Source of the DNA: a virus
Lineage: Duplodnaviria > Heunggongvirae > Uroviricota > Caudoviricetes
IMG/VR virus record: IMGVR_UViG_3300025073_000880
DNA length: 28,975 nt
Direction: 5' to 3' (one strand)
Positions 1,654-25,276 of this stretch are shown piece by piece (the first letter of the stretch is position 1; each line of letters begins with the position of its first letter). The notes under the pieces were generated by a model, which saw only the letters and a list, made by a program, of their open reading frames with translations, ran no database searches and had not been told where the DNA came from. Position numbers and translations under genes: made by a program.

Positions 1654-1663
1654 TTATAAACGT

Positions 1664-1903: not shown

Positions 1904-1905
1904 TC

Positions 1906-1914
1906 TGTGGATAA
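1906..1914 (-). promoter_or_regulatory. Perfect DnaA box
   Basis: TGTGGATAA at 1906-1914, 2 nt after the HTH stop and 5 nt upstream of the next -35. Confidence 0.55.
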
Positions 1915-1919
1915 TAAAC

Positions 1920-1948
1920 TTGACAAGTTGATTATTTTAATATACAAT
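1920..1948 (+). promoter_or_regulatory. Sigma70-type promoter for the SSB-like/recombination operon
   Basis: TTGACA 1920-1925, 17-nt spacer, TACAAT 1943-1948. Confidence 0.8.
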
Positions 1949-1979
1949 ATAAGTGAAAAATAATTATTAAAAAAAATTT

Positions 1980-2690: not shown

Positions 2691-2707
2691 ACGTAAACTA
2701 AATAACT

Positions 2708-2735
2708 GGGGTGGTTATTTAATAATCACCCCTTT
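2708..2735 (+). terminator. Probable weak intrinsic terminator or processing hairpin
   Basis: GGGGTGGTTAT/ATAATCACCCC 11-bp stem with one G.U on the + strand, 3-nt loop, followed by only TTT. Confidence 0.5.
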
Positions 2736-2770
2736 GAGGTGTGTTTAAAAATTAAAACGATAGATATTAT

Positions 2771-3811: not shown

Positions 3812-3897
3812 AAGGATTTAAATTATAGCTTTTGGTCACTTTATAAATGTAAAATCTTTATAAAAAATATCGGTATCAAGGCTAATAAAAAAAATAT

Positions 3898-4434
3898 ATG
3901 AGTAACGTTATAGGCCTTGATTTATCTTTAACAGAGACTGGGGTTGCAATTATTAACAGCAATAAACTAGACCCAACACTCATTGAAATAAAATCAAAGC
4001 CAACAGCTATTAAAACTCCTATAAATGAGCTCAAAAGAATACTTGGAATAAAGAATTCAATCATGGATGTAGTTAAAGGTAGCGAAATAGACATAGCAGT
4101 AATTGAAGGCTTAGCCTTTATGGCAAAAAACACAACTTCATTAATACAATTATCAGGACTTAACTATATGATTAGAGAGGCCTTGTATAATTTAAGTATA
4201 AAATTCGTTATAGTAGCCCCAACACAATTAAAAAAATATATAACAGGCAAGGGTAATTCCCCAAAGGATACAATGATGCTTGAAACATATAAGCGTTACG
4301 GCCAATCGTTTACAAGCAATAATCTTTGTGATGCCTTTGGGCTTGCAACTATTGGTGTTAATTTGCTCCACCAAGATAAAAAAATAACCATTCCACAAAA
4401 AGAAACCATTAAATTATTAACCCCACAATTATGA
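3898..4434 (+). CDS. Phage RuvC-like Holliday junction resolvase
   Basis: VIGLDLSLTETGVA, AVIEG, VAPTQLKKYITGKGN and NNLCDAFGLA motifs. Confidence 0.85.
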   Translation: MSNVIGLDLSLTETGVAIINSNKLDPTLIEIKSKPTAIKTPINELKRILGIKNSIMDVVKGSEIDIAVIEGLAFMAKNTTSLIQLSGLNYMIREALYNLSIKFVIVAPTQLKKYITGKGNSPKDTMMLETYKRYGQSFTSNNLCDAFGLATIGVNLLHQDKKITIPQKETIKLLTPQL

Positions 4435-4781
4435 CAGAAGGAAAAAAAAATCTTAAAGGTTTTTCGCAAATAATGAAATCAAGAGATACCTCTCAATGCC
4501 CACACTGTAACAAAGAAATTTATATTTCGATATCTAGTATGGTTCCGATTATATCATCTATTATTACCCCTGACACAGCCAAAGAGGCTAAAGAGATTGT
4601 TAAAAAATTTATAGATGGTTCAGCGTTTAAGAACCCCGAAGAAAAACAACAACGGTTAAGTTGGCTTAACGATGAAACTACAATTATTGACCCAGAAGAT
4701 GTTAAAAGTTTTCTTGACGATGTGGCTAGGAATTGTATAACCACACCAAAACTTGATGATATTAAAGACAAAAAAGAATAA
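4431..4781 (+). CDS. Hypothetical protein with one CxxC (CPHC)
   Basis: ATGA overlap with the resolvase stop; stop 2 nt before the sbcC start. Confidence 0.7.
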   Translation: MTEGKKNLKGFSQIMKSRDTSQCPHCNKEIYISISSMVPIISSIITPDTAKEAKEIVKKFIDGSAFKNPEEKQQRLSWLNDETTIIDPEDVKSFLDDVARNCITTPKLDDIKDKKE

Positions 4782-4783
4782 AC

Positions 4784-6901
4784 ATGTTAAATATTAGCCA
4801 AATACATCTTAAAAATTTTATCAGTCATGCGGATACTAAATTAAATCTAACTATTCCGCAAAAGGTTTTAATTGACGGAAAGTCTGGACATGGTAAATCA
4901 TCAGTTATAGATGCTTTCATTTGGTGTTTATATGGAAGAAGTAGAGCTGACAACAGGTCTCTTATAAGGCGAGGGGCTGAGCGAGCAGAAGTGTCTGTTG
5001 CCTTGATTGATGGTCAAACAAATGATGAATATAAAATAACAAGATCAATAACCAATGGTGGTAAGCATGACTTGACCGTAACCCACAAAGAAAAAAAGTC
5101 TTTCCTGCCAATAAAGGTTAATGGTGTTAAAAACATCCAAATGTTTATAGAGCGAGATTTATTAAAATCTTCATATCTTTTGTTTATAAATTCTATCGCT
5201 TACCCCCAAGATAACCAAGAAAATTTCGTAAAACAAACTGCGACCAAACGCAAGGAGATAATAATGGAAATGATAAAGGCGGAAGATTATGACACTTATT
5301 ATAATAAAACAAAAGATAAGCTTAATGAACTTAAAATTGCTCTGGAAAAAAATCTTTCTCGGATTGAATCATCCCAAAACACGATTAATACCTATAAAGA
5401 TATAGCGTCTGGTCTGAATGTTTTGTTGGCTGAAAAAAACAACCTCGAGAAACAATTAACCACTCTAAAAGAAAAGCTTTCAGAATTACAGATTAAGGTT
5501 GATGAAAAAAAAGTTTTAGATGCTACTATCAACCAAAAAAAGAACGAGTTGCTAAAAACCATTAAGGAAATAGAAATAAAACAGCTAGATATTGATAGCC
5601 AAAAGATGAAACTGGGAAGCCTTAACGGCATGGATATATCAAAAATGGAGGCTGATTGTGCTGGGTTGCAAGAAGATAAAGATACTTTAAAAATACTCCA
5701 AGCAGAAAGTTTAATCCTGTCAGATTGGTTAAACAGAAAAATGGCTGTTATGTCAAAAAAACCAGCAGAGGTTGATTTTGAAGAAGATATAAAAACGATA
5801 AACAAAACAATTATCGATTTAACCTACCAAAAAGTAACTATTTGTCCCGAGATACAAAAACCATGCCCACTTTATGATAAAGAAAGACAGGGTAAACTTG
5901 AAGAAAATAAAGTGTTGTTGAAAATAACCTACGATAAAAAGAAAAAACAGGCTGAAGATGTCAATGAATATATAATAAAATTAGCTGAGCTCGGAGACGA
6001 ACCCGTGGTGGATACAGAGAAAATTAATGCCCTTTCAGCCGTTGTCTCTAAGAAAGAAAAAATTTTTGCTGACTTTAATCGTCTTAAAACCACCAGAGAT
6101 GTTGATATCAAAAACACCCAAGAAATAATAGCCAAAAGCCAGGATGATTTTAATATCTTAGTCGGCTTAAAGGAAACAATATCTGAAGAGATAACAGGGA
6201 TAGAGTTAAAAATAAAAGACTTAGAATCGTTTAAGGTTGAAGCGTCTAATGTTGAGCTGAATATTTCAACAGCGAACACAGATATGCTTGATGTTGTAAA
6301 CAAAATAGCTTCTGCTGAAAATGCTAAAAAACTTGTTGAGAAAGAACAAGAAAATATAAATATTGTCACCAAAGAAAATGAATTGGTTGGGGACAACACT
6401 GAATGTTTAACACTTTTGAAAGAAGCCTTCAGCCCTACCGGCATTAAGGCGATTATAATTGATTATATAATCCCAAGGATGGAAGAAAAGATTAATGACA
6501 TACTTGGAAAGCTTTCGGATTTTAGAGTTCGTTTAGATACTCAAAAAAAAGGGTTAGGTAAAGATACTGTTTTAGAGGGGCTATTTATCAGCATATTTAA
6601 TGAACTAGGTGAAGAGTTTGATTTTGATAACTATAGTGGATCTGAAAAGATGAGAATTACCTATGCCATATCAGAGAGTCTAGCTTCAATCCAAAACTGT
6701 GGGTTTAGAATCCTTGATGAGTTCATCCATGGTCTTGACACAGAAACAGAAGAAAAATTTGCAAATATTATTTTACGACTTAAAAACGAAGTTGACCAAC
6801 TGTTTTGCATTACCCACATTCAAAGCATTAAAGATTTATTTGAAGAAAAGATTTTTGTTAAAAAAATAAACGGATTATCTTCAATTACGTATGGTTATTG
6901 A
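4784..6901 (+). CDS. sbcC: SbcC/Rad50-family ABC ATPase (T4 gp46-like)
   Basis: Walker A GKSGHGKSS, Q-loop YPQ, long coiled coil with central cysteine pair, signature YSGSE, Walker B ILDE, D-loop GLD, H-loop ITH. Confidence 0.92.
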   Translation: MLNISQIHLKNFISHADTKLNLTIPQKVLIDGKSGHGKSSVIDAFIWCLYGRSRADNRSLIRRGAERAEVSVALIDGQTNDEYKITRSITNGGKHDLTVTHKEKKSFLPIKVNGVKNIQMFIERDLLKSSYLLFINSIAYPQDNQENFVKQTATKRKEIIMEMIKAEDYDTYYNKTKDKLNELKIALEKNLSRIESSQNTINTYKDIASGLNVLLAEKNNLEKQLTTLKEKLSELQIKVDEKKVLDATINQKKNELLKTIKEIEIKQLDIDSQKMKLGSLNGMDISKMEADCAGLQEDKDTLKILQAESLILSDWLNRKMAVMSKKPAEVDFEEDIKTINKTIIDLTYQKVTICPEIQKPCPLYDKERQGKLEENKVLLKITYDKKKKQAEDVNEYIIKLAELGDEPVVDTEKINALSAVVSKKEKIFADFNRLKTTRDVDIKNTQEIIAKSQDDFNILVGLKETISEEITGIELKIKDLESFKVEASNVELNISTANTDMLDVVNKIASAENAKKLVEKEQENINIVTKENELVGDNTECLTLLKEAFSPTGIKAIIIDYIIPRMEEKINDILGKLSDFRVRLDTQKKGLGKDTVLEGLFISIFNELGEEFDFDNYSGSEKMRITYAISESLASIQNCGFRILDEFIHGLDTETEEKFANIILRLKNEVDQLFCITHIQSIKDLFEEKIFVKKINGLSSITYGY

Positions 6902-7316
6902 AACACAAGTAGACACTAAAAATGAGTTACAAATGTATATTATGCTCGTTGATGTATTTGACCCTTTGAATCGACGCAGGGAGGAAAACATTGAAGTTGT
7001 TTTTAGTGATGATTTTAATATTGTAATAACAGGGCTAAAAGCAAAATATACCTTAAATGGTTCACCATTTGTGATTAGAAAACTTAGTAATGTACCAACA
7101 GAAACACTACTAACAGCTATCAGTAAATCAAAAAACACCCATCAAACTAAAACTGCAACCATAACCAATAAGAAAAATAATGAATCAAAAGAGCAATTCA
7201 TTTATAATCTCCAATATGTTGCCGATAAATACAAAAAAATTTTGACCGTAACTGACCTAAGGGCTGTCTACAATATAGTAAAAAAGATTACATCTAAAAT
7301 AAAAAAATCCACATGA
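6891..7316 (+). CDS. Hypothetical protein
   Basis: 141-aa ORF overlapping the sbcC end and ATGA-coupled to the next gene; no motif recognised. Confidence 0.65.
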   Translation: MVIETQVDTKNELQMYIMLVDVFDPLNRRREENIEVVFSDDFNIVITGLKAKYTLNGSPFVIRKLSNVPTETLLTAISKSKNTHQTKTATITNKKNNESKEQFIYNLQYVADKYKKILTVTDLRAVYNIVKKITSKIKKST

Positions 7317-7561
7317 ACATTTCTTTTATTAAAAAAAATGAACCATCATTAGTATTCAGACATAAAATAGATACTATTTTTGAAGGAACACCAATTGAAA
7401 TTGAACCTTTAACCTTAACAGTTGGAAAGTGTCTTATAAAAACATTTAGGCTTGCACCGTTTTTATATTCAACCTGTGTGTTTAATGGAATGAGTATATG
7501 CTGTGGGTTTAATACACCAAGTGAAGCAAAAGATTTCGCTTTAAATGTAAACAATCTATGA
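7313..7561 (+). CDS. Hypothetical protein
   Basis: 82-aa ORF with ATGA overlaps at both ends. Confidence 0.6.
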   Translation: MNISFIKKNEPSLVFRHKIDTIFEGTPIEIEPLTLTVGKCLIKTFRLAPFLYSTCVFNGMSICCGFNTPSEAKDFALNVNNL

Positions 7562-8124
7562 AAGAAAAAAAGCTTTTTAAGCCTGACACTTCTCTCTTAA
7601 AACGTTATGTCGGCTCACATAGTAAACAAAGCCGTTTAGCTGAAAGCTCTGATATTGAAACAATAAAAAAAGATTCAACCGATATGTTCCAACTTTTATA
7701 TTTACCATACGGTCATTATAAGGGTGGTTATGCTATAGCTCATCCTCAAATAAATAAAACAGACCCAATTAGGTTTTTTGTCACAATAGACCAAGATATT
7801 ATAATCAACCCTACCATAATTAAACACACAAATGCCTTTGTTAATTCGGATGAAGGATGTTTGGACTTCCCTAATGAAATAATGGTTACTGTTCAAAGGT
7901 TTAATAAAATAACAGTTAAATACCAAGAACTTAATCTCATTAACGATAATTTTATAATATCTGACACAAAGACAAAAGAACTTTCTGGGTTTGAGGCTAA
8001 GGTTTGGCAGCATGAAATTGATCATCTTAATGGTGTAAATATTATGTCAAAAGAACATCACGCTATAAATAATATAAATAAAATAAAAAAAATCTATGGA
8101 AACCCAACAAGAACAAAAAAGTGA
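7558..8124 (+). CDS. def: Peptide deformylase
   Basis: Motif 1 GYAIAHPQ (variant), motif 2 EGCLD, motif 3 QHEIDHLNG. Confidence 0.93.
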   Translation: MKEKKLFKPDTSLLKRYVGSHSKQSRLAESSDIETIKKDSTDMFQLLYLPYGHYKGGYAIAHPQINKTDPIRFFVTIDQDIIINPTIIKHTNAFVNSDEGCLDFPNEIMVTVQRFNKITVKYQELNLINDNFIISDTKTKELSGFEAKVWQHEIDHLNGVNIMSKEHHAINNINKIKKIYGNPTRTKK

Positions 8125-8518
8125 ACAAACAACAGATGCCAGTACCCTAGTTAATGTTAATGACTATGAGTCCGTATATGTCTCATTTATGCAAGATTAT
8201 AAAAGAGGAGTAACTGACGGTGAAATGGTTGGTGTCACAATTGCTAAATTGGCACAATGCTATGGAACAATTAATAGGTCTTTAAATAATTGGTCTAGGG
8301 TTGCAGGCGAGAAATACTCTGAAATACTTGAAAGCACAGAACCTGGTACAGGTAAAGCTATATCTGTTGCTAAAGCCTCTGTTGTCTGGGAATCTACGGA
8401 AGAATATAGAAAAATGAACTCCGTTAAAATTGACCTTGCCATTGTCGACCAATATATCAATGCACTCAAATATCTCCAAAAGGGAATTTTGAACGAATAC
8501 AGCCATAGTGGTTTATAA
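8096..8518 (+). CDS. Helical hypothetical protein, possibly a UvsY-like recombination mediator
   Basis: All-helical pattern (ISVAKASVVWESTEEYRKMNSVKIDLAIVDQYINALK) reminiscent of UvsY; sits in a recombination operon. The functional call is weak. Confidence 0.35.
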   Translation: METQQEQKSEQTTDASTLVNVNDYESVYVSFMQDYKRGVTDGEMVGVTIAKLAQCYGTINRSLNNWSRVAGEKYSEILESTEPGTGKAISVAKASVVWESTEEYRKMNSVKIDLAIVDQYINALKYLQKGILNEYSHSGL

Positions 8519-8536
8519 GCATAAACCAAAACCATA

Positions 8537-8782
8537 ATGGCTAAAATTATTAAACAATGCCCCGTTTGTAGGAGATACTTTGTTAGAAAACATTATCGCC
8601 ATATGTTTTGTAGCCGTAAATGCTTCAAATCTGTTTACAATAAACAAAGAAAAGAAACTTTATACCCAATATTTAAATGCCCACATTGTAAAGAAATTAC
8701 AGAGCTAACATTTTATCCAAAAAAAAATGCCCACAAGTGGGAAATGTTTATATGCCCAAAATGCAAAAAACAAGCGATTTAA
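8537..8782 (+). CDS. Small double zinc-finger protein
   Basis: CPVC...FCSRKC followed by CPHC...CPKC. Confidence 0.75.
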   Translation: MAKIIKQCPVCRRYFVRKHYRHMFCSRKCFKSVYNKQRKETLYPIFKCPHCKEITELTFYPKKNAHKWEMFICPKCKKQAI

Positions 8783-8892: not shown

Positions 8893-11800
8893 TCACCTCA
8901 TATTCTTATATTTGTTCCAGTCCATTTTAGAACTACTGTCATCAGTAGTTATTTTTTTATACCCAGACATATCAATACCAGTTTTACTGCTAGAACCTGA
9001 CTCGGTTAGAATATCATTTATTATTTGAGCAAGCTGTGAAGAACCTGGACCACCAAGCACAGACCCTAATGCACCAAAAACTTTTACCGCTCCTTTTATT
9101 TTTGTTTTTTTCTTTTTGCCAGTTAATAATGATTGTAAACCTTCAAGCACATCATCGAAAGACCTAATCACAGGAACTGGACTACTTCCGTACGTTAATG
9201 ATGAAATAATGGACCCAAGCATCGGTATGTTATTTGTAGAGTTTTTTAGGATACTTTTAAGCACGGTTTCATTCTCAACATTTTTGTCTGTGATAAGAGA
9301 CATTACCCATTTACTAAATCGTCTAGTAGCCTCTTCAAACGCACTTGTAACTATAAAAAACCAAATTAAACCAGAAATAGCCTTTTTATAATCACCTTTT
9401 TGTATGCCCTCATACCAAACTTGTCTTTGTATATTTGACCACCGATGAAGTAAAAAGCTTTGAAATGTTAAGATTGTTTTATTTATAGACCGATTATTGG
9501 CCAAGCCAAAACCTGTAGAGATGGCTAGTGGCTGGTCTTTATAGTATGAAGACCCTTGGCTGTCACGCATTAATTTATTAGCTTTTGCTAAAATGGTAGG
9601 GTTAGGGTTTGAAAGATTAATCTCTATCCCGATTTCCTTAGCAAGTTTCATATACGCCCCAGCTGCAGCTGTAGACCTCATTAGTCCATCCATTACCTGT
9701 AATGGTTTCATTCCTGATTGCTGTATTTTACCCCATAATTTTTCATCAAACTCTCTAAAAGCAATATCATCGCCAACTGCGGCTTTTATTTCAGGGAAGT
9801 TATTCATTATAAAATTTCGCCATTCTTTTGATGTAGCAATTTTATATGCTCCTTGTGAAGCCCAATCAACACCAATGGTTGCAGCTGCATCTGAAAACGA
9901 TGATAATTGGATTAACGCTGAAGATAATCTAAAACCTAAAACCCCAGCTGTCATATTTCTTCTTACCCAATCTAATCCTTTAATCCTTTGAAAATTTTGG
10001 ACACCACCTTTTCTAGCCATTAAGTCCAAATACTCGCTCCATGCGGCTTGACCAACATCACCAAAATGCTCTTTCATTTCTTTTGATTTTACAATCTCAG
10101 AATACATTTTTATATCACGACCCATGGATAGGGCGTATGCAACATCATCAATGTGCCGCAAGAAAACCTCTTTGGCATTGAGGCGTAGTGGCATATCACT
10201 GACATCTTTACGGCTTTCAACAAATGATTTTTCGACAAGTTTTGTTTGCCTTTGGGCAGCAGCATCTAAAACATTATCATTCCCAAATTTTTGCTGGATT
10301 TCAAAATCAGACATAGCTTCAAAGTCAGAAAAAAATGTCATATAGCTTTTAACCTCTTTCACATCAACATTGAACTCTTCCCTTGCCCATCGTTTTATTA
10401 AAGGGTACGTTTTAGCGTTTGTTTCAACAATGAAGTTATATAGCTCCATTTCGCCTTCTGTTAACTTAATTGATTCAATATATTCCCTTGAAAGCCTATT
10501 GTTCTCAACTAACCTCTGCATACCACCTTCTTGTTTTGAAATAGCATAAATACCAACATTTTCAAAACTGTCTTCCAGTAGATGTCGTCTTTTAATAATG
10601 TCTTCAAACTTTTCAACTATTTCAATATTGAAGTTTAAATAATTACCGTAATCAGCGTCTAGCGTTTCTTTCATTGGCACCATGCCAGTTATTTCAGCCA
10701 AAAGGTCTATGGAAGTAAGCCCAACATTTGTTTTTTGAAGATAATTGCGAAGACCTATATACCTATCAGCCCAAGCTCTTTTTGTTCTGTTTGCAAGTTG
10801 TTCTTTGGTAAACTTTTTTCTTGAGTTTATTGGGGCCTCTGTTTCCAGTAGAGCCTGTTTTTTTAATACTCTCTCTTGAATATATATTGCGTTTCTATTG
10901 ATAAGATTAAGTTTCCCCAAATTGATTAAAAGCTCAATTTGACGCTGTATGCCTTGAAGCTGAGATAAGGTAAGTTGATCCTTTGGTATTCTGCCCAAAA
11001 TTTCAAGCTGTCTAAGAACCCTATTGGGCATTTTCATTTCATGCCCAAGCTCGCTTTGCTTATCTAAAAATGCTTGAGTAGCCCTGAGTTTATCCATAAA
11101 CGCCTCTGTATGACGAGTCAATTCAAAAGTATCAAGAAGCTCTTGGATTCTTTTTTGATATTCGACATCAATTTGTTTACTACTAGCAATGTTCTTAGCT
11201 GTTTTTTTAAGATTATTAATAGCCTCTTCAAATTGTATTTTTTCAGAAAGAGTGTCTATCCTAGAAAAAAGCTTTATCGCACCTTTAATAGTGTTAACTT
11301 TAGATAACCCAGATAAAACTTTGCCACGAGCTGAAATGGGAAGATATGTATTGGCATATTCAACAACACGTTTTTTGGCAGAAACCGCAGTTAGTTCTTT
11401 TTGTTTAAAAAATCCGATTAAAGCATTTTTAGCCTCTCGTCTTTTTATTTCTTTTTTGATATTTACCTCTTCACTTTTGATAGCCTGAGCATCAGCCTTA
11501 TCAAGAATCTTCAAAGCAGCAACAATGGTGTTTGTTTTTCTTATATCAGACAAAAAGACACCCTGATCCTCTGACGGGACATTCCTTTTAATATAGGAGA
11601 TAATGTTTTGTTTTATTCTATCAACGCTTGCATTTTCAGCCTTTGCGTCACCCACTATTCTAGCCTTAGCCTCAGCCTGACCTGCCACATAGCTTATCTT
11701 TGAGCTTTTAGCCATGGCTCGTATCCTACTTCTCAACAAAACATCTTCACGACTACTGACAACGTTAGCTGATTCTGGTGCAAGCCCAACTGCCCTCAAG

Positions 11801-14800
11801 CCACGAATACCCGGGATACCTTCAGTTAAAGCTTTTACGGCAGTTGTTTTCTTTTCTTTAGATTTAGATTTGATTTTTATAAAATCCTGTTTGGCATCAG
11901 CAAACTTTTTACCACTAGCTTTAAATGTAGGAGCTTCACCTTTTATTTTAGCTTTAATTTCAGGAGTTAATTTTATCCCTTGCTGGGTTTTTTTCTTGGT
12001 GGAGATGTCATATGTTTCTCCGTCTTGTAATAAAACCTTGTTCCCTTTTAATTCATAAGGGGTCAGTACTTCACCATCAGGAATTTTTACCTTATTGCCA
12101 TAGACATCAGTCGCAGGGACATCTCTTTTGAGTTTAATGTCAGGATAAGTTTTCATTATATCGTCAACCGTCATCCCAACGGCCCCTCTAAGCGTTTCAG
12201 CTGTCTTTTTAGTAGGCATTTCTTTAATCGCTTTTATGGCGGTTGCTTTATTTGCCCTTGCCGTAATTGTAGGAAGTTTTTCTTTTATGGCTGTAACTAT
12301 CGTTGGTTTTTTAGGCTTCTTTTTAACCTCTTCGGTTAATGTTTCAGTTTCATAATCTGTAGTCTGTTCGCCAATTCTTTGGTCTGTAATAAAAATTGGC
12401 GAATTAAGCTTATCCTCTGATTCATAAACATATATTTTTTTACCATCAAGAGATTTCAAAGCTGAACCTAAATATTTAGCATCGAAAGCCAACCTTTCTT
12501 CTCCGACTTTTATTGGCATTATCAATACGCCATTATTCGCCTCACCTGGATTGGTAGAAACACTTGACGATACTGCTGGGATGGCAATAGTTTTATCTAT
12601 ATCTAACTCATTATTTTTAACAGTTACCGAAAGCAATAACTCTCCGTCCTTCTTGTCAATATAGACATTATTATTTACAACCTTTTTGGCTAATGGGAGT
12701 AATTCTTTTATGGCGGAAGAAAGGCGACTGCCATCAACTGCCTCAACCGTTTTATATCCACGTAATATTTGTTTATAATCTGGGTATGTCCCTTGGATTC
12801 GTCTAACAATAACCTCGCCATTTTCTCCACTAAACTTAATTGTATTTTCACCAACTGAAATGCTACACATATCACCAACAGCAGTTAAGACTTTTGATAA
12901 TTTAGTTGGATTAGACACAATAATATCAACATTATCAGCTGATACAACATTTGATTTATTAATAAAAAGCCTATAGGCATCAGTGCTTACAACCGTCATC
13001 GCCCCATCAGTTATGTTTATATTTATCCCAGATAACTCTATTCTATTATCTTTTTCGTTCATGTTTAAGGTGGCTTTTTTAATAATATCTGAAAACTCTC
13101 TTGAATCTATTGATGTGGCAACAAGCTCAGTTTCTTCACTCGGGGTGGACGGAAAATCTTCTGGGCTTAATTTTGTTTTTGTTGCGTTCTTACCAACAAC
13201 TTGGTACATCCCATCTTTTAAATCAGATTTTACATCAACAAAAACCTCAAGATCAGTCACCTGTAAACGACCATTGGAAACGCGAGCCTCTGATAATATT
13301 GGAATATTTTTCTTCTTACTTCCTATAGCATTAATAATATTAACATTGGATAAAGGCTTTGATTTTAACGTTTTTACTTTTTGGCTTTTAATGGCTTCTA
13401 AAGCTGTCTGTTTTTGGGTGCCATCAAATACTTTTTTTTCTGGTCCGGAAATCTTTGGCTTACTAATCTTAAATACTTTTTCTAAATAGGTGTCAAATTT
13501 ATTTTGGTCAAACTCTGGTATAGATAACTCTTTGCTTGGATTATTCCATTTTGCTGGCAAAAGCGATGCTGGTGACATCCCAAATTGTCCTTCGGTTTCA
13601 CTGATTGCACCTGCATAATAACCATCAACACTTCCGTCAGTGTTTCTTTTTGTGAGCACAACTGGACGTAAAATGCCCGTCGGCATTTTTTGCTGATATA
13701 TTTCTCCTGGATTAAATTCCCCAGCACCGATTCTTGCATTTGTTAACATTTGTCTGTCTGCCTCCGTTTTTTCATTTGCAGAAAATTTTTCCTTTTCTTT
13801 AACACCCTTCTCTGCAACAAAAACATCATAAAACTCAGCAATGGTCATGCCTACATCTTTTTTGATTTGTTCCTGTATCCTTTTTGCTGTATCTCTCTTT
13901 GTTAAATTTTGCTGTACCAACTCAGCGTTGAACATTTCAACAAACTCTTCCTTTGTCAGGTTTTCTTTCTTTGCCTTTTCAACAAATTCTTCTATCTCAG
14001 GAGAAACGTTCTTTGATACATCTTCAACTGTAAGACCAGGGGTGAGCTGTTTTACAAAACCCTTAAATTCTTCTCTCATTTCAGGATGACTCACATATTG
14101 AACAACCGTGTCCATGCCAGAACCACCCAAGAGCCCCCCTGCAAAACTCATAACAGACCTAGTCATAGCCTCATCCCAACCCAAATCATCCCTAAATGTT
14201 TTTTCTGTAGCTAATGTTACAGCTTCTTGTAAAACCTCAGTCCCACCTTCAGTCAAACCAGATCCAGCTATCCCCAAAAGTCTTTTGGTGAGACTAGATA
14301 CAAACTTATTTTTAGCCGACCCCAATATCTTTGACGGGACTATTCTGTCTAATAAAGAAACCAAAACACCGGCATAAATACCCTTTTTGGTCGCAGTATC
14401 AGGATCAACGCCTTTAGCCTCAGCCATATCCTTTATGTCGCCAGCTGTACTCCCAGCAACAACCGCAGACCCAAAGACAGGATTTATTGCGTACATCCCC
14501 AAACTAGCTATAACACTTGGAGCCAACTCAAGAAATGTTTCCGTAATATGCTCCGGTGAAAACTTTTCTGAAAGAGAGGCATTTTTCCACTCATCTGACG
14601 GCTCGAAAGCTTTATGGCTATTAATAGTTTCAAACCATTGTTTTATTTTTTCTTGTGGTAAATTGTCTTTATTGGCTTCAAATACAGCATTCCACTCTTC
14701 AAGTTTCTTTTGTCTTTCTTGTCGTTGTTTTTCCGTTCCTATTTTGGCTTCAAAACCCGTGCCTTTTATATAAGATGGTAACGTATCACCAGCCTTAATT

Positions 14801-15369
14801 TGCCCCATTCGTTTTGTAAGAGCATCCACGAAAAAATCAAATGATGTAGATACCATCCCACCAGCAAGCAACCCTGTCCGTGTAAGAAACTTGCCGTAAT
14901 CATCCACTTTGGGGCTAATGCCCAAGCCAGGAGTTAGCATTTTAGCAACTGTTAATGGTGATTCTTTCACTATTGGCTTATCCACAACCTTTTTTTCAGT
15001 AGAAGAAAGCGGTGATGTGTATTTATCCATTATGATTTTATACCGTGCGAATGGAGAAAGTTGTTCCTGAGTTTTAGATGTTGGAGTTACGGTCGTATAT
15101 TTTAAATCAGGAATAATACGTAAAAGCTCTGTAGTTGTTTTCCTCGGACCAGAATATAAAACAGTTGGTTTTTTCTCTGATTCTTTCTTCAAATATTCTT
15201 CAGTCCTCTCTTGAGCCTTAGGGTCATAAAGCTCTTGAGCCCCAGAATTTTTTTCCTTTATGTATTTATAGGTATTATAAGCACTCTCTATAAGACTATC
15301 GCCAGAGAGATTTTTTGCCGTTGTTATAAAACTACTACCTATTTTCTTTAATGAGTCTAATAATGCCAT
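8893..15369 (-). CDS. Giant (2158 aa) putative internal virion/DNA-ejection polyvalent protein containing a DnaN (beta-clamp) domain
   Basis: Last and largest gene of the virion operon; Gly/Ala-rich hydrophobic N-terminal segments (GLTEGGTEVLQE, FAGGLLGGSG); long helical C-terminal half; internal clamp motifs. Confidence 0.75.
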   Translation of the reverse strand: MALLDSLKKIGSSFITTAKNLSGDSLIESAYNTYKYIKEKNSGAQELYDPKAQERTEEYLKKESEKKPTVLYSGPRKTTTELLRIIPDLKYTTVTPTSKTQEQLSPFARYKIIMDKYTSPLSSTEKKVVDKPIVKESPLTVAKMLTPGLGISPKVDDYGKFLTRTGLLAGGMVSTSFDFFVDALTKRMGQIKAGDTLPSYIKGTGFEAKIGTEKQRQERQKKLEEWNAVFEANKDNLPQEKIKQWFETINSHKAFEPSDEWKNASLSEKFSPEHITETFLELAPSVIASLGMYAINPVFGSAVVAGSTAGDIKDMAEAKGVDPDTATKKGIYAGVLVSLLDRIVPSKILGSAKNKFVSSLTKRLLGIAGSGLTEGGTEVLQEAVTLATEKTFRDDLGWDEAMTRSVMSFAGGLLGGSGMDTVVQYVSHPEMREEFKGFVKQLTPGLTVEDVSKNVSPEIEEFVEKAKKENLTKEEFVEMFNAELVQQNLTKRDTAKRIQEQIKKDVGMTIAEFYDVFVAEKGVKEKEKFSANEKTEADRQMLTNARIGAGEFNPGEIYQQKMPTGILRPVVLTKRNTDGSVDGYYAGAISETEGQFGMSPASLLPAKWNNPSKELSIPEFDQNKFDTYLEKVFKISKPKISGPEKKVFDGTQKQTALEAIKSQKVKTLKSKPLSNVNIINAIGSKKKNIPILSEARVSNGRLQVTDLEVFVDVKSDLKDGMYQVVGKNATKTKLSPEDFPSTPSEETELVATSIDSREFSDIIKKATLNMNEKDNRIELSGININITDGAMTVVSTDAYRLFINKSNVVSADNVDIIVSNPTKLSKVLTAVGDMCSISVGENTIKFSGENGEVIVRRIQGTYPDYKQILRGYKTVEAVDGSRLSSAIKELLPLAKKVVNNNVYIDKKDGELLLSVTVKNNELDIDKTIAIPAVSSSVSTNPGEANNGVLIMPIKVGEERLAFDAKYLGSALKSLDGKKIYVYESEDKLNSPIFITDQRIGEQTTDYETETLTEEVKKKPKKPTIVTAIKEKLPTITARANKATAIKAIKEMPTKKTAETLRGAVGMTVDDIMKTYPDIKLKRDVPATDVYGNKVKIPDGEVLTPYELKGNKVLLQDGETYDISTKKKTQQGIKLTPEIKAKIKGEAPTFKASGKKFADAKQDFIKIKSKSKEKKTTAVKALTEGIPGIRGLRAVGLAPESANVVSSREDVLLRSRIRAMAKSSKISYVAGQAEAKARIVGDAKAENASVDRIKQNIISYIKRNVPSEDQGVFLSDIRKTNTIVAALKILDKADAQAIKSEEVNIKKEIKRREAKNALIGFFKQKELTAVSAKKRVVEYANTYLPISARGKVLSGLSKVNTIKGAIKLFSRIDTLSEKIQFEEAINNLKKTAKNIASSKQIDVEYQKRIQELLDTFELTRHTEAFMDKLRATQAFLDKQSELGHEMKMPNRVLRQLEILGRIPKDQLTLSQLQGIQRQIELLINLGKLNLINRNAIYIQERVLKKQALLETEAPINSRKKFTKEQLANRTKRAWADRYIGLRNYLQKTNVGLTSIDLLAEITGMVPMKETLDADYGNYLNFNIEIVEKFEDIIKRRHLLEDSFENVGIYAISKQEGGMQRLVENNRLSREYIESIKLTEGEMELYNFIVETNAKTYPLIKRWAREEFNVDVKEVKSYMTFFSDFEAMSDFEIQQKFGNDNVLDAAAQRQTKLVEKSFVESRKDVSDMPLRLNAKEVFLRHIDDVAYALSMGRDIKMYSEIVKSKEMKEHFGDVGQAAWSEYLDLMARKGGVQNFQRIKGLDWVRRNMTAGVLGFRLSSALIQLSSFSDAAATIGVDWASQGAYKIATSKEWRNFIMNNFPEIKAAVGDDIAFREFDEKLWGKIQQSGMKPLQVMDGLMRSTAAAGAYMKLAKEIGIEINLSNPNPTILAKANKLMRDSQGSSYYKDQPLAISTGFGLANNRSINKTILTFQSFLLHRWSNIQRQVWYEGIQKGDYKKAISGLIWFFIVTSAFEEATRRFSKWVMSLITDKNVENETVLKSILKNSTNNIPMLGSIISSLTYGSSPVPVIRSFDDVLEGLQSLLTGKKKKTKIKGAVKVFGALGSVLGGPGSSQLAQIINDILTESGSSSKTGIDMSGYKKITTDDSSSKMDWNKYKNMR
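12379..13353 (-). other. Embedded DNA polymerase III beta sliding clamp-like domain (aa about 673-997 of the giant protein)
   Basis: DnaN motifs in canonical order: NIPILS, TDLE, EDFP, RIELSG, VSTDAYRL, RRIQGTYPDYKQIL, AFDAKYL, SPIFI. Confidence 0.88.
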
Positions 15370-15384
15370 AAATGTTTTTTAAGA

Positions 15385-17160
15385 TTAACCAAGACCGGGT
15401 TTATCACCCCAAAAGTCGCCAAAAACTTCTTTAAATATTTCAAGTTCCCTGTCCGTAGGATTAGGCCCAAGATAAATTTTTGACTCATCGTCCTCATAAA
15501 GATCATTCCAAACATCCTTAGCTGTTACCCCACGGCTTTTAGATTCAATCAATTCATCCCTGTAAAACTGGTCAGTAAGTGTTTTTCTGATTGTAACATC
15601 ATCCTCTGTTTCTGGTGACTCTTTAACTGTTATGTAATAAGGATTGTTTGGGTTTCTATATCCTGCAAAAGTTGTATCAAAATCATTAGGTGATTCATTA
15701 TACAATGTCACCCACTCACTCCTAAACTTAGCCCAGTCATCAGGGGATACAAATGTATCAACACCTCTAACGGCCGCAAGGCTTTTATTCATTTCAGCCT
15801 CTTTTTCGGCCCTTGTCATTTTCTTCTTGTCATCAGCGTTGATGATATCATCAATCTTTTTCTCAACATCAACAATCCTACCTATCCCAAGTAAAGCACT
15901 ATTTAATATATCAAGTTGATATTTTGTCTGGTCTTGTGATATCTTTGTCCTATTATCAACATTTTCATAAAGTTCTTCAAGCATATCAGAAACGTTCTGA
16001 TATGCCTCTTTTGTAATGGCAGTTTGACGTTTTATTGCACTTTCAGCAGCAGCTAAACTTGAATTATAAATATTAGTAGCTTGAGTCATCTTATTATTAA
16101 AGCTTTCAATACCAATATTCAAAAAATCAATGTAGCGATTGGTCTGTCTGCCACTTAGAATTGTTAAATAATTAAGATAATTTGACATACGTTTAGACAC
16201 ATTTGGGTCGGATGTGTCCATATATGCAATTTTAGACTTGCCCTCATCAAGCAATTTATCAATCTTCCCAAGGTACTCATCTTTCCCTTTAATATATGAA
16301 GTCAAATTTGTTTCGAGACCCAATCCTTGGTTTTGAAGATTGGTAAGATTTTCATATTGAGAATCAAGCTTAAATTCTTTACGTATAGCATCCTCCAATT
16401 CATTCAGTTGGTCAGAAAGTAATCCACTTTCAGGTAAGTTGCTGACGGCTTCTGGTGGTAAATTTAATAGTTTCGCTAGACTGTCACTATCAGATAAAAC
16501 TCCCATTTTAAATGTTTTAGGACCAACGCCTAATTTAACTGCATCATAGACATCTTTCATCCTAGTTTGTTTGTCAGTTTCCAAACCTTCATACCATGTG
16601 TCAAGACCGTTCTCTCCACTTGTAGCTAAAATGTCTTGCATTGTCTTTGATAAAGAATCAGCATCAACGCCATATGAAGCCAATAATTCATCCGCACTCT
16701 TAATAAATTTTGTGGTTGACGGCACATCTGACACAGTTGCCCCACCAAATGGTGTCATTCCACCAGTTAAAGTCTTTGCTACCTCTTTTTGTGGGTTTGT
16801 TATAGCACTTTTTTGGTCTGGACTCATCACGCTCATTGGCGTTTTTGGAGAATAGCTTGGAGGAGTGTAAGCATTTTCAAAATATTTCAATAATGGGTCA
16901 GAATACCCGCTAGATGTTGATGATCTTGGCTGAGTACTTGAAGTAAAATAATTGTCCAAAACACCACCCTGACCGTCTTGCCTGTTATAATTATTACTCG
17001 CTTTGGTTAACGAGCTCAAAATAGATTTAACCTGACTGTTCTTTGTACTCCCAACAGGAGATTTCCATGCCGAAAAAATTAACTTCGACAGTTTGGGATT
17101 CTTCATTACAGCCGATATAGCAGAGGCTTTAGCCCTAGTTAAATTATCGTTCATGGCCAT
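15385..17160 (-). CDS. Putative internal virion/ejection protein (helical, S/P/T-rich N-terminal linker)
   Basis: 591 aa, coiled-coil-like centre, located between the M23 gene and the giant protein; role inferred from synteny only. Confidence 0.5.
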   Translation of the reverse strand: MAMNDNLTRAKASAISAVMKNPKLSKLIFSAWKSPVGSTKNSQVKSILSSLTKASNNYNRQDGQGGVLDNYFTSSTQPRSSTSSGYSDPLLKYFENAYTPPSYSPKTPMSVMSPDQKSAITNPQKEVAKTLTGGMTPFGGATVSDVPSTTKFIKSADELLASYGVDADSLSKTMQDILATSGENGLDTWYEGLETDKQTRMKDVYDAVKLGVGPKTFKMGVLSDSDSLAKLLNLPPEAVSNLPESGLLSDQLNELEDAIRKEFKLDSQYENLTNLQNQGLGLETNLTSYIKGKDEYLGKIDKLLDEGKSKIAYMDTSDPNVSKRMSNYLNYLTILSGRQTNRYIDFLNIGIESFNNKMTQATNIYNSSLAAAESAIKRQTAITKEAYQNVSDMLEELYENVDNRTKISQDQTKYQLDILNSALLGIGRIVDVEKKIDDIINADDKKKMTRAEKEAEMNKSLAAVRGVDTFVSPDDWAKFRSEWVTLYNESPNDFDTTFAGYRNPNNPYYITVKESPETEDDVTIRKTLTDQFYRDELIESKSRGVTAKDVWNDLYEDDESKIYLGPNPTDRELEIFKEVFGDFWGDKPGLG

Positions 17161-17165
17161 ATGTT

Positions 17166-17762
17166 TTATTTTATAAACTGTAAAGGATTTATATATTTAT
17201 TGAACGCATTCATAACACGATAATCGAGATGTGAACCAGTCCCTCCGCTTAAAGAATATACACTCCCGCTTACCCCCATTCGCCCAATCTCAGACCCAGC
17301 GGTTACTGGTTCATTAATAGCCACAAAAACTTTATCCAAATGGCTATATCTATGCTTATTCCCTTGAGGGTCGGTTACTATAACATAATTACCGTAACTA
17401 GATTTGGCAGAATTACTACCCTGCCCAATACGCACATCCGTGACAACACCCTCGGTAAATGTTGGGATTGATGTCCCAATTTTATTTGCGATATCAACCC
17501 CTGGATGAAATTTTTCATATCTAGTGCTCCCACCATAAGGAGTTGTTACTGACCCGATGCTAGACAAACTTGTGGGGACACTTTGGCGAGGCATAGCACT
17601 CCCACTTTGCATTGGTTGTTGCTTGATAATATCAACAAGACCTGAAAATTTTTCAGTTGGTTTATTAACAGGTAAACTTTCACCAACATCTTTTGCTGTT
17701 TGGATAAATGGTTTTATTGCAGAGGCATACCCCCTATAAGTTGTATTTTCTTTAAGTGCCAT
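17166..17762 (-). CDS. M23/LytM-family peptidase, probably a virion-associated peptidoglycan hydrolase
   Basis: FHPGVDI (HxxxD), YGNYVIV, YSHL, GSHLDY (HxD variant of HxH), INP. Confidence 0.85.
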   Translation of the reverse strand: MALKENTTYRGYASAIKPFIQTAKDVGESLPVNKPTEKFSGLVDIIKQQPMQSGSAMPRQSVPTSLSSIGSVTTPYGGSTRYEKFHPGVDIANKIGTSIPTFTEGVVTDVRIGQGSNSAKSSYGNYVIVTDPQGNKHRYSHLDKVFVAINEPVTAGSEIGRMGVSGSVYSLSGGTGSHLDYRVMNAFNKYINPLQFIK

Positions 17763-17802
17763 AGTGAATTTTTATTTATGCAATTTCATTATATGTTTTA
17801 TT

Positions 17803-20800
17803 TTATTGCCATCTTTGATCAACACCAGGATTTAAGTATATATCAGTTCCAACCTTTTTTGTTTCTTCTGGCTTATACAATTTAAGTTCAGTAAGCCCTG
17901 GTATCCTTACTAATGGTTTGCCATACATCGTTGTCCCATCTGGGTTTGTCATATGGGCAGAATATCGTTCAATCTCTGATGGGTTTGGAATAGCTGAATA
18001 ACCTGATGGAGCAGACCACTGGTTAGAAATGTTTGAAGCAGCTTCGGAGGCACTCGCCAATGATGTCGGAGAAGAAGACGGTATTGCAGGCGTTAAGGAC
18101 CACCCAGAACCCAAAAGCTGAGATGCTTCACTGCTACCAACTTGGACACGTTTTGAAGACCCACTTGGGCCATAAAGTATCGCAAACTCGGTAGCCGCAG
18201 GTGTTAATGTCCAACCTTGAGATTGAAGCTGAGAAGCTCTACTCGTACCAATTTCAACAACCTCTCTTTGACCTCCTGGCCCATATAAGGTTGCCTTTCC
18301 CTCCATACCCTGTACATCTCTACTTTGAGGTGAAGATGTCCCCGATGGTACAGTCGTATCTGTCCCAGTTGTTGTTGTTTCTGGTTGTGTTATGTCATCA
18401 GGAAGGCTAGCATAATCAGGGTTATATGAAGAAAATGGATTGGCAGCAGCAGTATATGGAGCATAAGCTTTTTCCTCCTCTGTTAATTTTTGTGCCATTA
18501 GCTTTTCTTGCTGATACGTTTTCTTTGCTTCTCCAAGGTCATACTTATTGGCAAATAGGTTTTGGTATAATTGGCTTCTATAATTTCCATTTTCATCAAG
18601 CATTGTATCTCTCATGGCCTTAATCTGAGCATCGCTTAATGTTGGATAAAGCTTTTTGAGATTATCTATATTAAACCAGTTGGCAACATCATCACTTGGG
18701 ATTAAACCATAAGCCTTAGCCTTATCTGGATTTTGTGCCACAAACTGTTTTATTTCCTCTGAAGTGGCTGAATTAAGCAGATAATTTTTATAATTTGATT
18801 CTTCAGTTGTAAGCTTTTCATCTCGTAATAGCTGGTTGTTTCTCCTTACATCTGCCAAATACCTATCCATAGCTTCATTCATTAGACCACTATCACCAAG
18901 CCCAGCTTGACTATATCCTGAAAACATATCTTGCAACTGACCCCATGCCGTTCTAGCATTATCGCTTAAAGCTAAACCATATTTCTTTTCAAGAGACGTC
19001 TTAAACTCGTTCCAATTATTTTCAGCTAACGCCTTAGCTTGTTCAGTTTGGGCTTCAGCTTTTTGCATCATTAAATCATAATATGAAGCTTGAATCTTTT
19101 CGGCTTCAGCTTGAAACTCTGGAGATGTCCAGTCTATTGGTTCAATAAGAGTAGTAAAAGCTTGACCTGGTATTTGAAATATTGGGTTATCAAATAAACT
19201 TGAATCCATATTTAAAATATCAAGAGGAATTATCAATAACGTATCGTTTTTAGCTTTAATCCCATCAGACGTGCTATACCAAGAACTTGCCTTAACGTTT
19301 TCATCAAATGCCTTAAAATTATCATATTCAGAATTACCATTAGCTGAAAGTTGTTTTGCTTTAATTTCTTTATATATATCACCTAATGTATAACCACCAT
19401 AAAGTACGGCACTTGTATACTTTGCAAGCTCAGTTGCATTACCAACAGTTTTGTCAAATACATCTTGAGAAATATCATCTTTTAATTTCGCTGTAGTTAA
19501 AACCGTGCCAATTAAATTAGTGACCCATTGTTCATCTTCAGACGATAATTTTTCCGCCCCATAAATATTTTGTAATGCCTGCATTGTTTCAGGACTTGGT
19601 TGTTGTGGAGTTTGCTTAACTGTTTCATTAACAACCTTATCTTCTCCACCAGGGATTTCTCCATTATTTTGGACAGCTCTATCTCTAGTCAAAAAATCAC
19701 CTTGCCACGTAATGTTTGATAGTGCTGTCACAGGAACACTTTGAACTAATGGCATTATTTTATCTATTGTTGTCTCAAAAAAACTTTCCATTGCAGCAGT
19801 TGAGGCAAATGGTCGGTAAGTTTTATTTTGTTTATCATAAAACCAAATAGTGTTTTTATCATCAATGTTATCACTTGGCGTAGGGTCTTCTTGAAACTTT
19901 ACTAAAACATAATTACCATCAATGATATAATTGGCTGTTGGTGCTTGCTCAAAATCACGTTGTGACTTTTCGAGTATCTGTGTTCTTGTCTGCTCTAAGT
20001 TCTTTCTTAAAACCGTGTCATCAGCCTGACTCGAATATAATGCTTTTTCTTGCTCATTGGCAGGACGACCAAGGTAAAGCTGAAATAAACTATCGACTAC
20101 AGCATTGCCAATACCTTGTCCTGTATTATTTACCGTTTGCTGTGTTGTTCCCTGTGGTACGGTAGTCGAAGAAAGGTTTGATAAGGCGGTTTGGGTGTCA
20201 ATAACAGTTTTCCCACTAGCACCCAATATCCATCCTTGAGACTGCAACTTGCTGGCTTCAGATGACCCTACAGTTACAACCGTTTTAAATTTACCATCAG
20301 GTGAAGACAATGTTGCCTGACTTGTACTCTGTCCAGACGGGTCTTGTGTTGGTGTTTGCCGTGTTTGGCTAGAAGATGGTTCAGTTTGCCCACTTGGTGT
20401 TTGAACAGACGTTTGGAATGTGGTATCAGGTCTTTCAGGCTGAATAGGGGCTAAACGTTGATAAATTTCAGCAGGAGATAACCCTTGTGTCTGTAAAGCC
20501 TTAAACTGTTTTTCAAATTCAGCCATTGATTCTACATCTCCAAGATTAATCTTTGAACCAGAAATAGTCAGTGGAATGTTCGGTGTTGTTAAAATATTTT
20601 TCCATTTTGGGTCTAGTGATAGAGTCCCCCCAGGAACAAATGATCCCAAAGAAGACAATCCATTATCGCCGACTCTAAAAGCTTCGCCTGGACCAAATTG
20701 GATATTTTGACCTTTAAAAATATCAACCAACTGAGAAGAGTTTGTTAAAACACCTTGTGGGTTAACAACATCTTGATTAAATCTAGTCTCAACATCATTT

Positions 20801-20952
20801 CGAGAAAAACCTAACGCCTCCAAGGCTTCAAGGCTTGTAATTTCATACGTAACATTTCCTCTTGAATCCCCTGTTTGAACATCTATAAACACTTTGTTTT
20901 GGTCAACTTCGGGGTTCCTGCCTATTCTAAACAGGTTTATTTTTAAGCCCAT
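17803..20952 (-). CDS. Putative internal virion/ejection protein with several small repeated modules
   Basis: 1049 aa, Q/T/S/P-rich linkers, three GSSEAS.L.SQGW-type repeats, helical core; located just downstream of the tail genes. Confidence 0.55.
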   Translation of the reverse strand: MGLKINLFRIGRNPEVDQNKVFIDVQTGDSRGNVTYEITSLEALEALGFSRNDVETRFNQDVVNPQGVLTNSSQLVDIFKGQNIQFGPGEAFRVGDNGLSSLGSFVPGGTLSLDPKWKNILTTPNIPLTISGSKINLGDVESMAEFEKQFKALQTQGLSPAEIYQRLAPIQPERPDTTFQTSVQTPSGQTEPSSSQTRQTPTQDPSGQSTSQATLSSPDGKFKTVVTVGSSEASKLQSQGWILGASGKTVIDTQTALSNLSSTTVPQGTTQQTVNNTGQGIGNAVVDSLFQLYLGRPANEQEKALYSSQADDTVLRKNLEQTRTQILEKSQRDFEQAPTANYIIDGNYVLVKFQEDPTPSDNIDDKNTIWFYDKQNKTYRPFASTAAMESFFETTIDKIMPLVQSVPVTALSNITWQGDFLTRDRAVQNNGEIPGGEDKVVNETVKQTPQQPSPETMQALQNIYGAEKLSSEDEQWVTNLIGTVLTTAKLKDDISQDVFDKTVGNATELAKYTSAVLYGGYTLGDIYKEIKAKQLSANGNSEYDNFKAFDENVKASSWYSTSDGIKAKNDTLLIIPLDILNMDSSLFDNPIFQIPGQAFTTLIEPIDWTSPEFQAEAEKIQASYYDLMMQKAEAQTEQAKALAENNWNEFKTSLEKKYGLALSDNARTAWGQLQDMFSGYSQAGLGDSGLMNEAMDRYLADVRRNNQLLRDEKLTTEESNYKNYLLNSATSEEIKQFVAQNPDKAKAYGLIPSDDVANWFNIDNLKKLYPTLSDAQIKAMRDTMLDENGNYRSQLYQNLFANKYDLGEAKKTYQQEKLMAQKLTEEEKAYAPYTAAANPFSSYNPDYASLPDDITQPETTTTGTDTTVPSGTSSPQSRDVQGMEGKATLYGPGGQREVVEIGTSRASQLQSQGWTLTPAATEFAILYGPSGSSKRVQVGSSEASQLLGSGWSLTPAIPSSSPTSLASASEAASNISNQWSAPSGYSAIPNPSEIERYSAHMTNPDGTTMYGKPLVRIPGLTELKLYKPEETKKVGTDIYLNPGVDQRWQ

Positions 20953-20953
20953 A

Positions 20954-21124
20954 TTATTTTTGTGAAATTATATACTCAATTATTATTAGCTTCATCAGTT
21001 TAACCATGTCTGTATCATTGGCTGGTATTGAATTGATACTCTCAGGGTCTAATGTATAACCTTTATCTTGTAAATTTTTGATACAGGTTTTAATTACCGC
21101 CTTTTTTTTATCTGCAAATGTCAT
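20954..21124 (-). CDS. 56-aa hypothetical protein absent from the ORF track (MTFADKKKAVIKTCIKNLQDKGYTLDPESINSIPANDTDMVKLMKLIIIEYIISQK)
   Basis: Fills the intergenic gap exactly, with TGA-T-ATG at its start and TAA-T-ATG at its end. Confidence 0.8.
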   Translation of the reverse strand: MTFADKKKAVIKTCIKNLQDKGYTLDPESINSIPANDTDMVKLMKLIIIEYIISQK

Positions 21125-21125
21125 A

Positions 21126-23198: not shown

Positions 23199-23221
23199 AG
23201 TGAAAATACATGAATAATTTA

Positions 23222-25273: not shown

Positions 25274-25276
25274 AAA

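Follow-up and report, generated by a model that had tools for sequence, protein, structure and literature searches.

Bacterial replication and repair have their central docking hub in the beta sliding clamp (DnaN), which is also a target of antibiotics. A nucleic-acid enzyme can also form one module of a giant virion protein, as in coliphage N4, where the virion RNA polymerase gp50 is injected and acts before any phage gene is expressed. Polyvalent proteins, which combine many modules in one chain, have been proposed to deliver early-acting tools along with the DNA, and the LPD38 domain is listed as specific to those of the phage type (Iyer, Burroughs, Anand, de Souza, Aravind 2017, PMC5512222); clamps, DnaN, PCNA and processivity factors do not figure anywhere in its main text. 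An LPD5/LPD1/LPD38 giant of phage phi24B, about 2807-2811 amino acids (aa) long, is abundant in purified virions by proteomics and has been proposed to be an ejection protein (preprint 10.64898/2026.04.10.717836). Here, we analyze a stretch of 28,975 nucleotides (nt) of viral DNA (IMG/VR record IMGVR_UViG_3300025073_000880; the window) in which an open reading frame (ORF) of 2158 aa (P0001; 8893-15369, minus strand) carries a beta-clamp module in its interior. Polyvalent proteins and the beta clamp are familiar taken singly; what appears to be undescribed is the joining of the two and the remodelled topology of this clamp, and full-text literature searches returned no published description of a clamp inside an injected or polyvalent phage protein. 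We propose that the module is a docking hub delivered for host clamp-binding proteins at the phage genome, a reading to which we assign a probability of about 0.5.

The module spans aa 673-1000 (12370-13353; all parts of the giant ORF given below lie on the minus strand) and is a genuine DnaN-family protomer with homology across all three domains. An earlier note, made from the sequence alone, had described a beta sliding clamp domain embedded in a giant protein and placed it at 12379-13353, which corresponds to aa 673-997; sequence matches in Pfam, PHROG and PDB agree with the AlphaFold2 (AF2) fold in bearing this out. The motifs that it quoted all occur in the order given: IPILS (aa 689-693), TDLE (705-708), EDFP (737-740), VSTDAYRL (794-801), IQGTYPDYKQIL (858-869), AFDAKYL (961-967) and SPIFI (990-994). 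SPIFI, however, is the penultimate strand of domain III and not the terminal pocket motif for which it had been taken. The proposed check against Pfam succeeded for the central domain, with PF02767 (DNA_pol3_beta_2) scoring 55.2 bits over aa 754-864 against a gathering cut-off of 27 (E = 1.1e-14), and failed for the outer two, as neither the N-terminal PF00712 nor the C-terminal PF02768 profile matches P0001 at E <= 1. Among 20 relatives, PF00712 matches seven and PF02768 four (E <= 0.001).

Other comparisons extend over more of the module. The PHROG family phrog_947 ("DNA polymerase processivity factor") matches aa 730-998 with E = 2.1e-24, and phmmer finds PDB beta clamps with E down to 1.8e-10. 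An AF2 model of aa 650-1010, built from an alignment of 42 relatives, has a mean predicted local distance difference test (pLDDT) of 93 and a predicted template modelling score (pTM) of 0.89, and DnaN structures are the only ones that Foldseek returns for it at probability 1.0. VIA-align superposes the model on the clamps of E. coli, S. aureus and P. aeruginosa with Z scores of 26-27 and a root-mean-square deviation (rmsd) of 2.6-3.0 Å over ~295 residues, pairing model residues 24-351 with residues 11-355 (of 366) of E. coli beta. The envelope of a family hidden Markov model covers aa 662-998, and the folded part of the AF2 model aa 673-1000.

The fusion of a clamp to a giant protein is not a one-off, since almost all of the clamps most similar to this one lie within giant phage proteins. 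An exhaustive HMMER search with aa 655-1005 against 1.84 billion representative sequences (50% identity) found the clamp inside proteins longer than 900 aa, and up to 5478 aa, in 72 of the best 150 matches; ordinary cellular DnaN appears among the matches only from about E = 1e-14. Clamp-bearing giants of this clade are mostly 1100-5500 aa long. In a FastTree phylogeny, the 95 clade members stand apart from 10 cellular DnaN sequences on a branch of 0.63 substitutions per site, with the stand-alone members (314-402 aa) scattered through the tree. Overall, the clade is phage-specific and is found mostly within giant polyvalent-type proteins. Its members are remote from cultured phages: among 50,697 phage records, tblastn with a central clamp of the embedded clade retrieved only distant stand-alone phage clamps (19-31% identity), the whole giant protein gave one weak match and no close relative, and Megablast with 21 kb of the window gave no match.

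With at least 72 further giant multi-tool phage proteins containing this module, phages may deliver, along with their DNA, a docking hub for the replication and repair enzymes of the host. The company that the clamp keeps is that of polyvalent proteins: a Pfam scan of 20 clamp giants detected LPD38 in 11, N6_N4 methylase in three, Zeta toxin in two and DnaJ in two, and the same set also contains LPD1, GNAT, PARP and ART-PolyVal domains. Downstream of the clamp, a zincin peptidase (HExxH) plus LPD38 module is present in 54 of the 72 giants, and in 30 of these 54 no more than 30 aa separate the two. Such abutment could indicate that the pocket binds a phage peptide, either a cleavage or recognition site of the zincin peptidase or a capsid-cargo tag, in which case the module would serve assembly or processing and have no host target. 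We consider this improbable. The window protein has the clamp and no peptidase, none of the ORFs in the window contains a strict Q[LM]x[LM]F clamp-binding motif, and stand-alone clamp genes of the clade sit among early genes. Two of these stand-alone loci (L026:376-1413, 345 aa; L025:665-1714, 349 aa) belong to arrays of small genes of early type rather than to replication modules; the neighbours of the former include HTH_17, Pyr_excise, ROS_MUCR and a Tad3-family gene.

The recurrence of the fusion also bears on whether the ORF could be an artefact, either of misassembly (a chimaera) or of read-through across genes that are in fact separate. A JGI contig (Ga0103680_10002189; L001) is 100% identical to window positions 10069-25369 (15.3 kb) and then departs at aa 1769, inside the C-terminal module of the giant protein, into an unrelated 348-aa capsid-like ORF (L001:15301-16370), so at least one of the two assemblies is broken there. 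The break, however, lies 770 residues downstream of the clamp, and both assemblies share the clamp together with both of its flanks. Because the window version is colinear with all of its homologues (14) across the break, we regard the JGI contig as the broken assembly. The same in-frame embedding in 72 other giants and the distance of the break make a chimaera at the clamp junctions, which the earlier note had named as fatal to its claim, very unlikely, and an artefact of any kind scarcely credible. The jump of the JGI contig at window position 10069 is itself likely an assembly chimaera or a deletion variant. Exact-pattern scans of viral and metagenome contigs for an extension of the window gave no match.

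Relative to its cellular counterparts, the module is remodelled, as judged from a MAFFT alignment with 10 cellular DnaN sequences compared with the secondary structure of the model. Domain I (aa 673-747; 13129-13353) is shortened. About 35 residues, comprising the second helix and two strands, are missing in all family members inspected, so that one inner helix per protomer is absent and the module does not have the complete domain I of DnaN with its two inner helices. In place of the deletion stands a DGxYxxVGK hairpin, DGMYQVVGK in the window (aa 719-727; 13189-13215), which column conservation identifies as family-specific: G720 is found in 72 of 72 copies, Y722 in 69 of 71 and G726 in 67 of 72. 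Domain II (aa 748-869; 12763-13128), defined by the PF02767 match and by conservation, holds pocket equivalents in RIELSG (776-781), STDAYRL (795-801) and YPDYKQIL (862-869). Its residues T796 (68/72 embedded copies), D797 (70/72), R800 (57/72) and P863 (72/72) are conserved.

The third domain (aa 870-1000; 12370-12762) has eight strands, and model secondary structure, VIA-align and MAFFT all show its end to lack the canonical C-terminal strand. With this cellular terminal strand (..VMP(M/I)(R/K)..) missing from the end of the module, the superposition on E. coli beta goes no further than residue 355. The cellular C-terminal motif (..LVMPIK/R..) instead has an internal counterpart, VLIMPIK at aa 948-954 (12508-12528), recognized by alignment and conservation. 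Across the family it takes the form (L/I)(V/I/L)MP(I/V/M/L)(R/K), ~45 residues upstream of the module end, with M951 in 65 and P952 in 60 of the 72 copies; in the 10 cellular sequences, an LVMPIK/R-type motif is found at the C-terminus only. Judging from the position of the motif, VLIMPIK is probably the pocket strand relocated inwards.

The peptide-binding pocket was mapped from the E. coli residues. R152, Y153 and L155 correspond to aa 776, 777 and 779 of the window protein; T172 to 796; G174-L177 to 798-801; P242, R246 and V247 to 863, 867 and 868; N320 and Y323 to 963 and 966; and V360 and M362-R365 to 949 and 951-954. Pocket residues present in the window module are T796, D797, R800, L801, P863, I868, R776, L779, D963 and Y966. 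Across the 72 embedded copies, mean entropy is 1.56 bits in the 18 columns equivalent to the pocket versus 2.62 bits in the other 289 (one-sided Mann-Whitney p = 2e-6), and pocket equivalents account for 10 of the 32 most conserved columns. The regions equivalent to T172-L177 and P242-V247 are thus present, as the earlier note had stated, and conserved in the 72 copies. Neutral evolution of the pocket residues, which it had allowed would undo the proposal, is not seen, because the entropy of the pocket columns is the lower across these copies.

Since the pocket is conserved, readings in which the module binds host proteins are favoured, be it as a hub or as a decoy. In the latter case, the module would soak up host clamp-binding proteins or pair with host DnaN, and host replication and repair would stall early after infection. 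Besides the pocket, this is consistent with the truncation of domain I, which forms the ring interface and whose shortening makes a closed functional ring doubtful. It would also suit the other domains of clamp giants, several of which are toxins or host modifiers (Zeta toxin, ART, GNAT), and phages are known to target the host clamp, e.g., Twort Gp168 (PDB 7evp). By our own reasoning, however, the few injected copies would be in competition with hundreds of host clamps. Furthermore, a pure decoy would have no need of the inner-helix charge, which is kept at the cellular level, and the tandem modules of four relatives point to a ring rather than to a monomeric sponge. We therefore think a decoy or poison unlikely.

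The charge and the tandem copies instead favour a form that encircles DNA, as the head-to-tail homodimer ring of DnaN does once a clamp loader has placed it there. The five retained inner helices carry a net charge of +2.97 in the family versus +3.00 in cellular clamps, and over its full length the module is the more basic one (mean net charge +2.6, versus -6.7 in cellular clamps). Two tandem modules occur in P0071, P0074, P0119 and P0154 (2726-5478 aa), with both copies complete only in P0154. One possible role is that of a sliding tether, in which the linear DNA, as it enters, is encircled by two protomers or by one tandem pair, so that the giant protein with its other parts would remain topologically attached to the phage genome and travel along it independent of host clamp partners. 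In addition to helix charge, overall basicity and tandem modules, the retention of a three-domain protomer fits this role, and the DNA methylase domains in three of the 20 scanned clamp giants would profit from a tether. Sliding alone, however, leaves the pocket as the best-conserved surface unexplained; one inner helix per protomer is missing and the ring itself is putative, and we regard a tether of this kind as rather unlikely. The two complete copies in P0154 are joined by ~40 residues and could form a single-chain ring. A clamp ring already threaded on the DNA inside the capsid was also considered and set aside, as by our reasoning a folded ring ~80 Å wide could not pass the tail channel.

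The genomic position of the giant gene is that of a virion gene. It is the last of a minus-strand tail/ejection block that runs from ~28940 down to 8893; intergenic gaps among the same-strand genes upstream of it are 4-173 nt, on which its assignment to the block is based. In order, the products of the block are a Ser/Thr-repeat protein (558 aa), the SU10-type adaptor, a protein of 683 aa, a Laminin_G protein (690 aa), a protein of 1049 aa, the M23 peptidase, a protein of 591 aa and the 2158-aa giant. The head-to-tail adaptor gene (25277-26386, minus strand; 369 aa) matches PF24175 (E = 1.8e-19) and phrog_2941 ("virion structural protein"), and by this similarity it marks the block as virion/tail genes. 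The M23 peptidase (17166-17762, minus strand; 198 aa) is recognized by PF01551 (E = 6.6e-17) and PHROG matches. The 690-aa protein (21126-23198, minus strand) has a Laminin_G/ConA-like domain (PF13385, E = 4e-12) and is probably a fibre or receptor-binding protein. The tail gene block, with the giant gene last, is that of a podovirus, and the order of adaptor and then giant also holds in a complete relative (G002). The giant is therefore encoded among late/virion genes, on the same strand as and downstream of adaptor, fibre-like and M23 genes, and the earlier description of it as a polyvalent-type protein of the virion operon stands.

We propose the following course for a clamp that is delivered as a docking hub. 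The giant protein would be packaged in the capsid and leave with the DNA, like the virion RNA polymerase of N4 and as proposed for the LPD38 giant of phi24B. In the cytoplasm, the conserved pocket would dock host proteins that carry clamp-binding motifs, and candidate partners (the alpha and delta subunits of DNA polymerase III (Pol III), Pol I, ligase and repair enzymes) would be brought to the entering DNA before phage genes are expressed. No family A, B, protein-primed B or Pol III alpha polymerase matched in five related genomes, three of them 100% complete, and no DNA polymerase was seen in the 29-kb window or in the 27.5 kb covered of the 35.6-kb phage that encodes P0023, a clamp giant discussed below. 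As the relatives encode no recognizable DNA polymerase, the polymerase partner, if there is one, is probably that of the host.

Several points weigh against a delivered hub. Packaging and delivery of the giant are suggested by analogy with phi24B gp47, which has a C-terminal module of another type. With half of domain I missing, a ring may be unable to close, and the window protein, having no peptidase of its own, may keep the clamp tethered to the 2158-aa chain. A polymerase could be encoded in the ~14 kb of the phage genome that lie outside the window. Some of the constraint on the pocket residues is structural, and their conservation is no proof of ligand binding; the count of aa 949 and 951-954 as terminal-strand equivalents depends, moreover, on the putative relocation of the strand. 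More broadly and more tentatively, at rather less than even odds, we suggest that many uncultured phages inject a purpose-built clamp, rewired by a pocket strand moved inwards and a trimmed domain I to sit in-line in a polyprotein, which would capture the clamp-dependent polymerases and repair enzymes of the host at the entering genome within seconds.

Beyond the clamp, the giant protein is a combination of unrelated modules in a very large chain (an N-terminal region, the clamp, a small module and a helical C-terminal module), each shared with a different set of giant proteins. The C-terminal scaffold module, "A3" (aa 1301-2138; 8956-11469), is all-helical. Identity to the C-terminal ends of giants is 25-48%, both for 14 other proteins and for those of 19 IMG/VR loci (contigs of ~17-75 kb), and its AF2 model is all-alpha with pLDDT 64. 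In BFVD, it matches C-terminal parts of viral polyvalent-type proteins with E down to 4e-15, and the names of the proteins matched refer to LPD or ART-PolyVal domains, nuclease, MuF-C or "structural protein". The N-terminal halves of A3 homologues differ: PBECR5 occurs there, as do LPD22 (with a weak match to ART-PolyVal) and pieces that resemble DnaJ or a colicin DNase. A search for related loci with a single C-terminal sequence gave no match, and the A3 profile has no match among PDB sequences. Fold comparison with PDB yields weak helical matches only; the top one, the PhiM1 ejectosome protein (8vb2_A; Foldseek E = 0.017, probability 0.60), aligns by VIA-align with Z 8.0 and rmsd 3.8 Å over 198 residues, within the chance range for helical proteins, and we treat it as no more than a lead.

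The window protein is the only one retrieved that joins the clamp to an A3 scaffold. No clamp lies within 10 kb of the A3-type giants at the 19 IMG/VR loci, and PF02767 has no match in five whole-genome relatives of the window lineage. The A3 module is also distinct from the peptidase plus LPD38 module (A4), to which a profile-profile comparison found no relation (probability 4%). In the clamp tree, the window sequence pairs with the clamp of P0023 (support 0.96), a peptidase plus LPD38 giant of a 35.6-kb phage that thus carries the clamp closest to that of the window, and the pair falls inside a group of 17 (support 0.93) of which 12 are peptidase plus LPD38-type giants. The unique junction of clamp and A3, together with the tree, suggests that the clamp module moved between two kinds of giant protein. 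Within P0001 itself, Pfam gives PF02767 only, with none of the hallmark polyvalent domains (MPTase, LPD1-40, ART-PolyVal, PBECR); HExxH is absent, and with it the zincin peptidase and LPD38 module that usually follow the clamp.

A small conserved module (aa 1054-1172; 11854-12210) in a Lys-rich linker region is 44-76% identical to pieces of otherwise unrelated giants (P0016-P0022), in which its two halves lie ~450-550 residues apart, as if a domain had been inserted. The Gly/Ala-rich N-terminal region (aa 159-408; 14146-14895) is 34% identical to aa 99-336 of another giant (P0003) and contains, by a hydropathy scan, a single strongly hydrophobic segment (aa 286-305). PADLOC, run on three parts of the giant protein and two neighbouring genes, gave no match.

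Opposite to the virion block, a plus-strand recombination/early block (~770-8780) holds genes for SbcD, RuvC and SbcC, besides a family-2 glycosyltransferase and a peptide deformylase. The latter (7558-8124, plus strand; phrog_2890, E = 8e-21) is phage-encoded and adjoins the SbcCD and RuvC genes. A 99-aa ORF with DUF5659 (328-627, minus strand; E = 2e-9) precedes this block on the opposite strand. Directly upstream of the adaptor gene, the 558-aa ORF (26391-28067, minus strand) contains ~430 residues of (TSSS)n, or ~107 units, preceded by an N-terminus of 20 aa and followed by a basic domain of ~110 aa; this repeat accounts for a GC content of 0.47 and a GC skew of +0.47 at 27-28 kb. Together with the family-2 glycosyltransferase gene (766-1653, plus strand), it could point to an O-glycosylated, mucin-like virion fibre.

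If the clamp module is injected, it would represent a new way for a virus to seize the replisome hub before expressing any gene, and, if this holds true, a new class of delivered effector aimed at that hub. Independent of delivery, a compact natural clamp variant in which domain I is short and the pocket strand rearranged could separate the needs of partner docking from those of ring closure. The known repertoire of polyvalent proteins also gains a widespread domain that the main text of the founding survey leaves unmentioned. The proposal is directly testable by peptide-binding and virion proteomics work.

In comparison with known systems, the module is closest in fold to bacterial DnaN (E. 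coli 2POL/1MMI; PF00712, PF02767, PF02768). It shares the three-domain architecture (Z 26-27) and the positive inner helices, and equivalents of R152, L155, T172, D173, R176, L177, P242, V247, N320 and Y323 are conserved. Bacterial DnaN is, however, a 366-aa stand-alone protein, whereas the module sits inside a protein of 2158 aa whose gene is not in a replication module; its domain I is ~35 residues short, its MP strand is not at the end and has a matching motif ~45 residues upstream, and only the central Pfam model scores. The homologous stand-alone phage clamps (PHROG 947, E = 2e-24) likewise differ in being separate genes of ~370 aa in replication modules next to phage polymerases.

As a whole, the window protein resembles the polyvalent proteins (PMC5512222) in being a giant multi-module protein encoded with late genes, and its relatives carry MPTase, LPD38, LPD22, LPD1, PBECR5, ART-PolyVal, methylase and GNAT domains; it differs in that it scores for no LPD or MPTase model itself. 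The phi24B giant gp47 (vb_24B_48, L027:29149-37572) is similarly a podovirus giant encoded at the end of the structural genes. It contains no clamp module and shares its LPD38-type C-terminal module with most clamp giants (E = 3e-42), whereas the C-terminal module of the window protein is of another type that has no profile-profile relation to the LPD38 module. Finally, N4 gp50 is an RNA polymerase, not a clamp, and has no sequence relation to the window protein, but it provides a precedent for the proposed logic.

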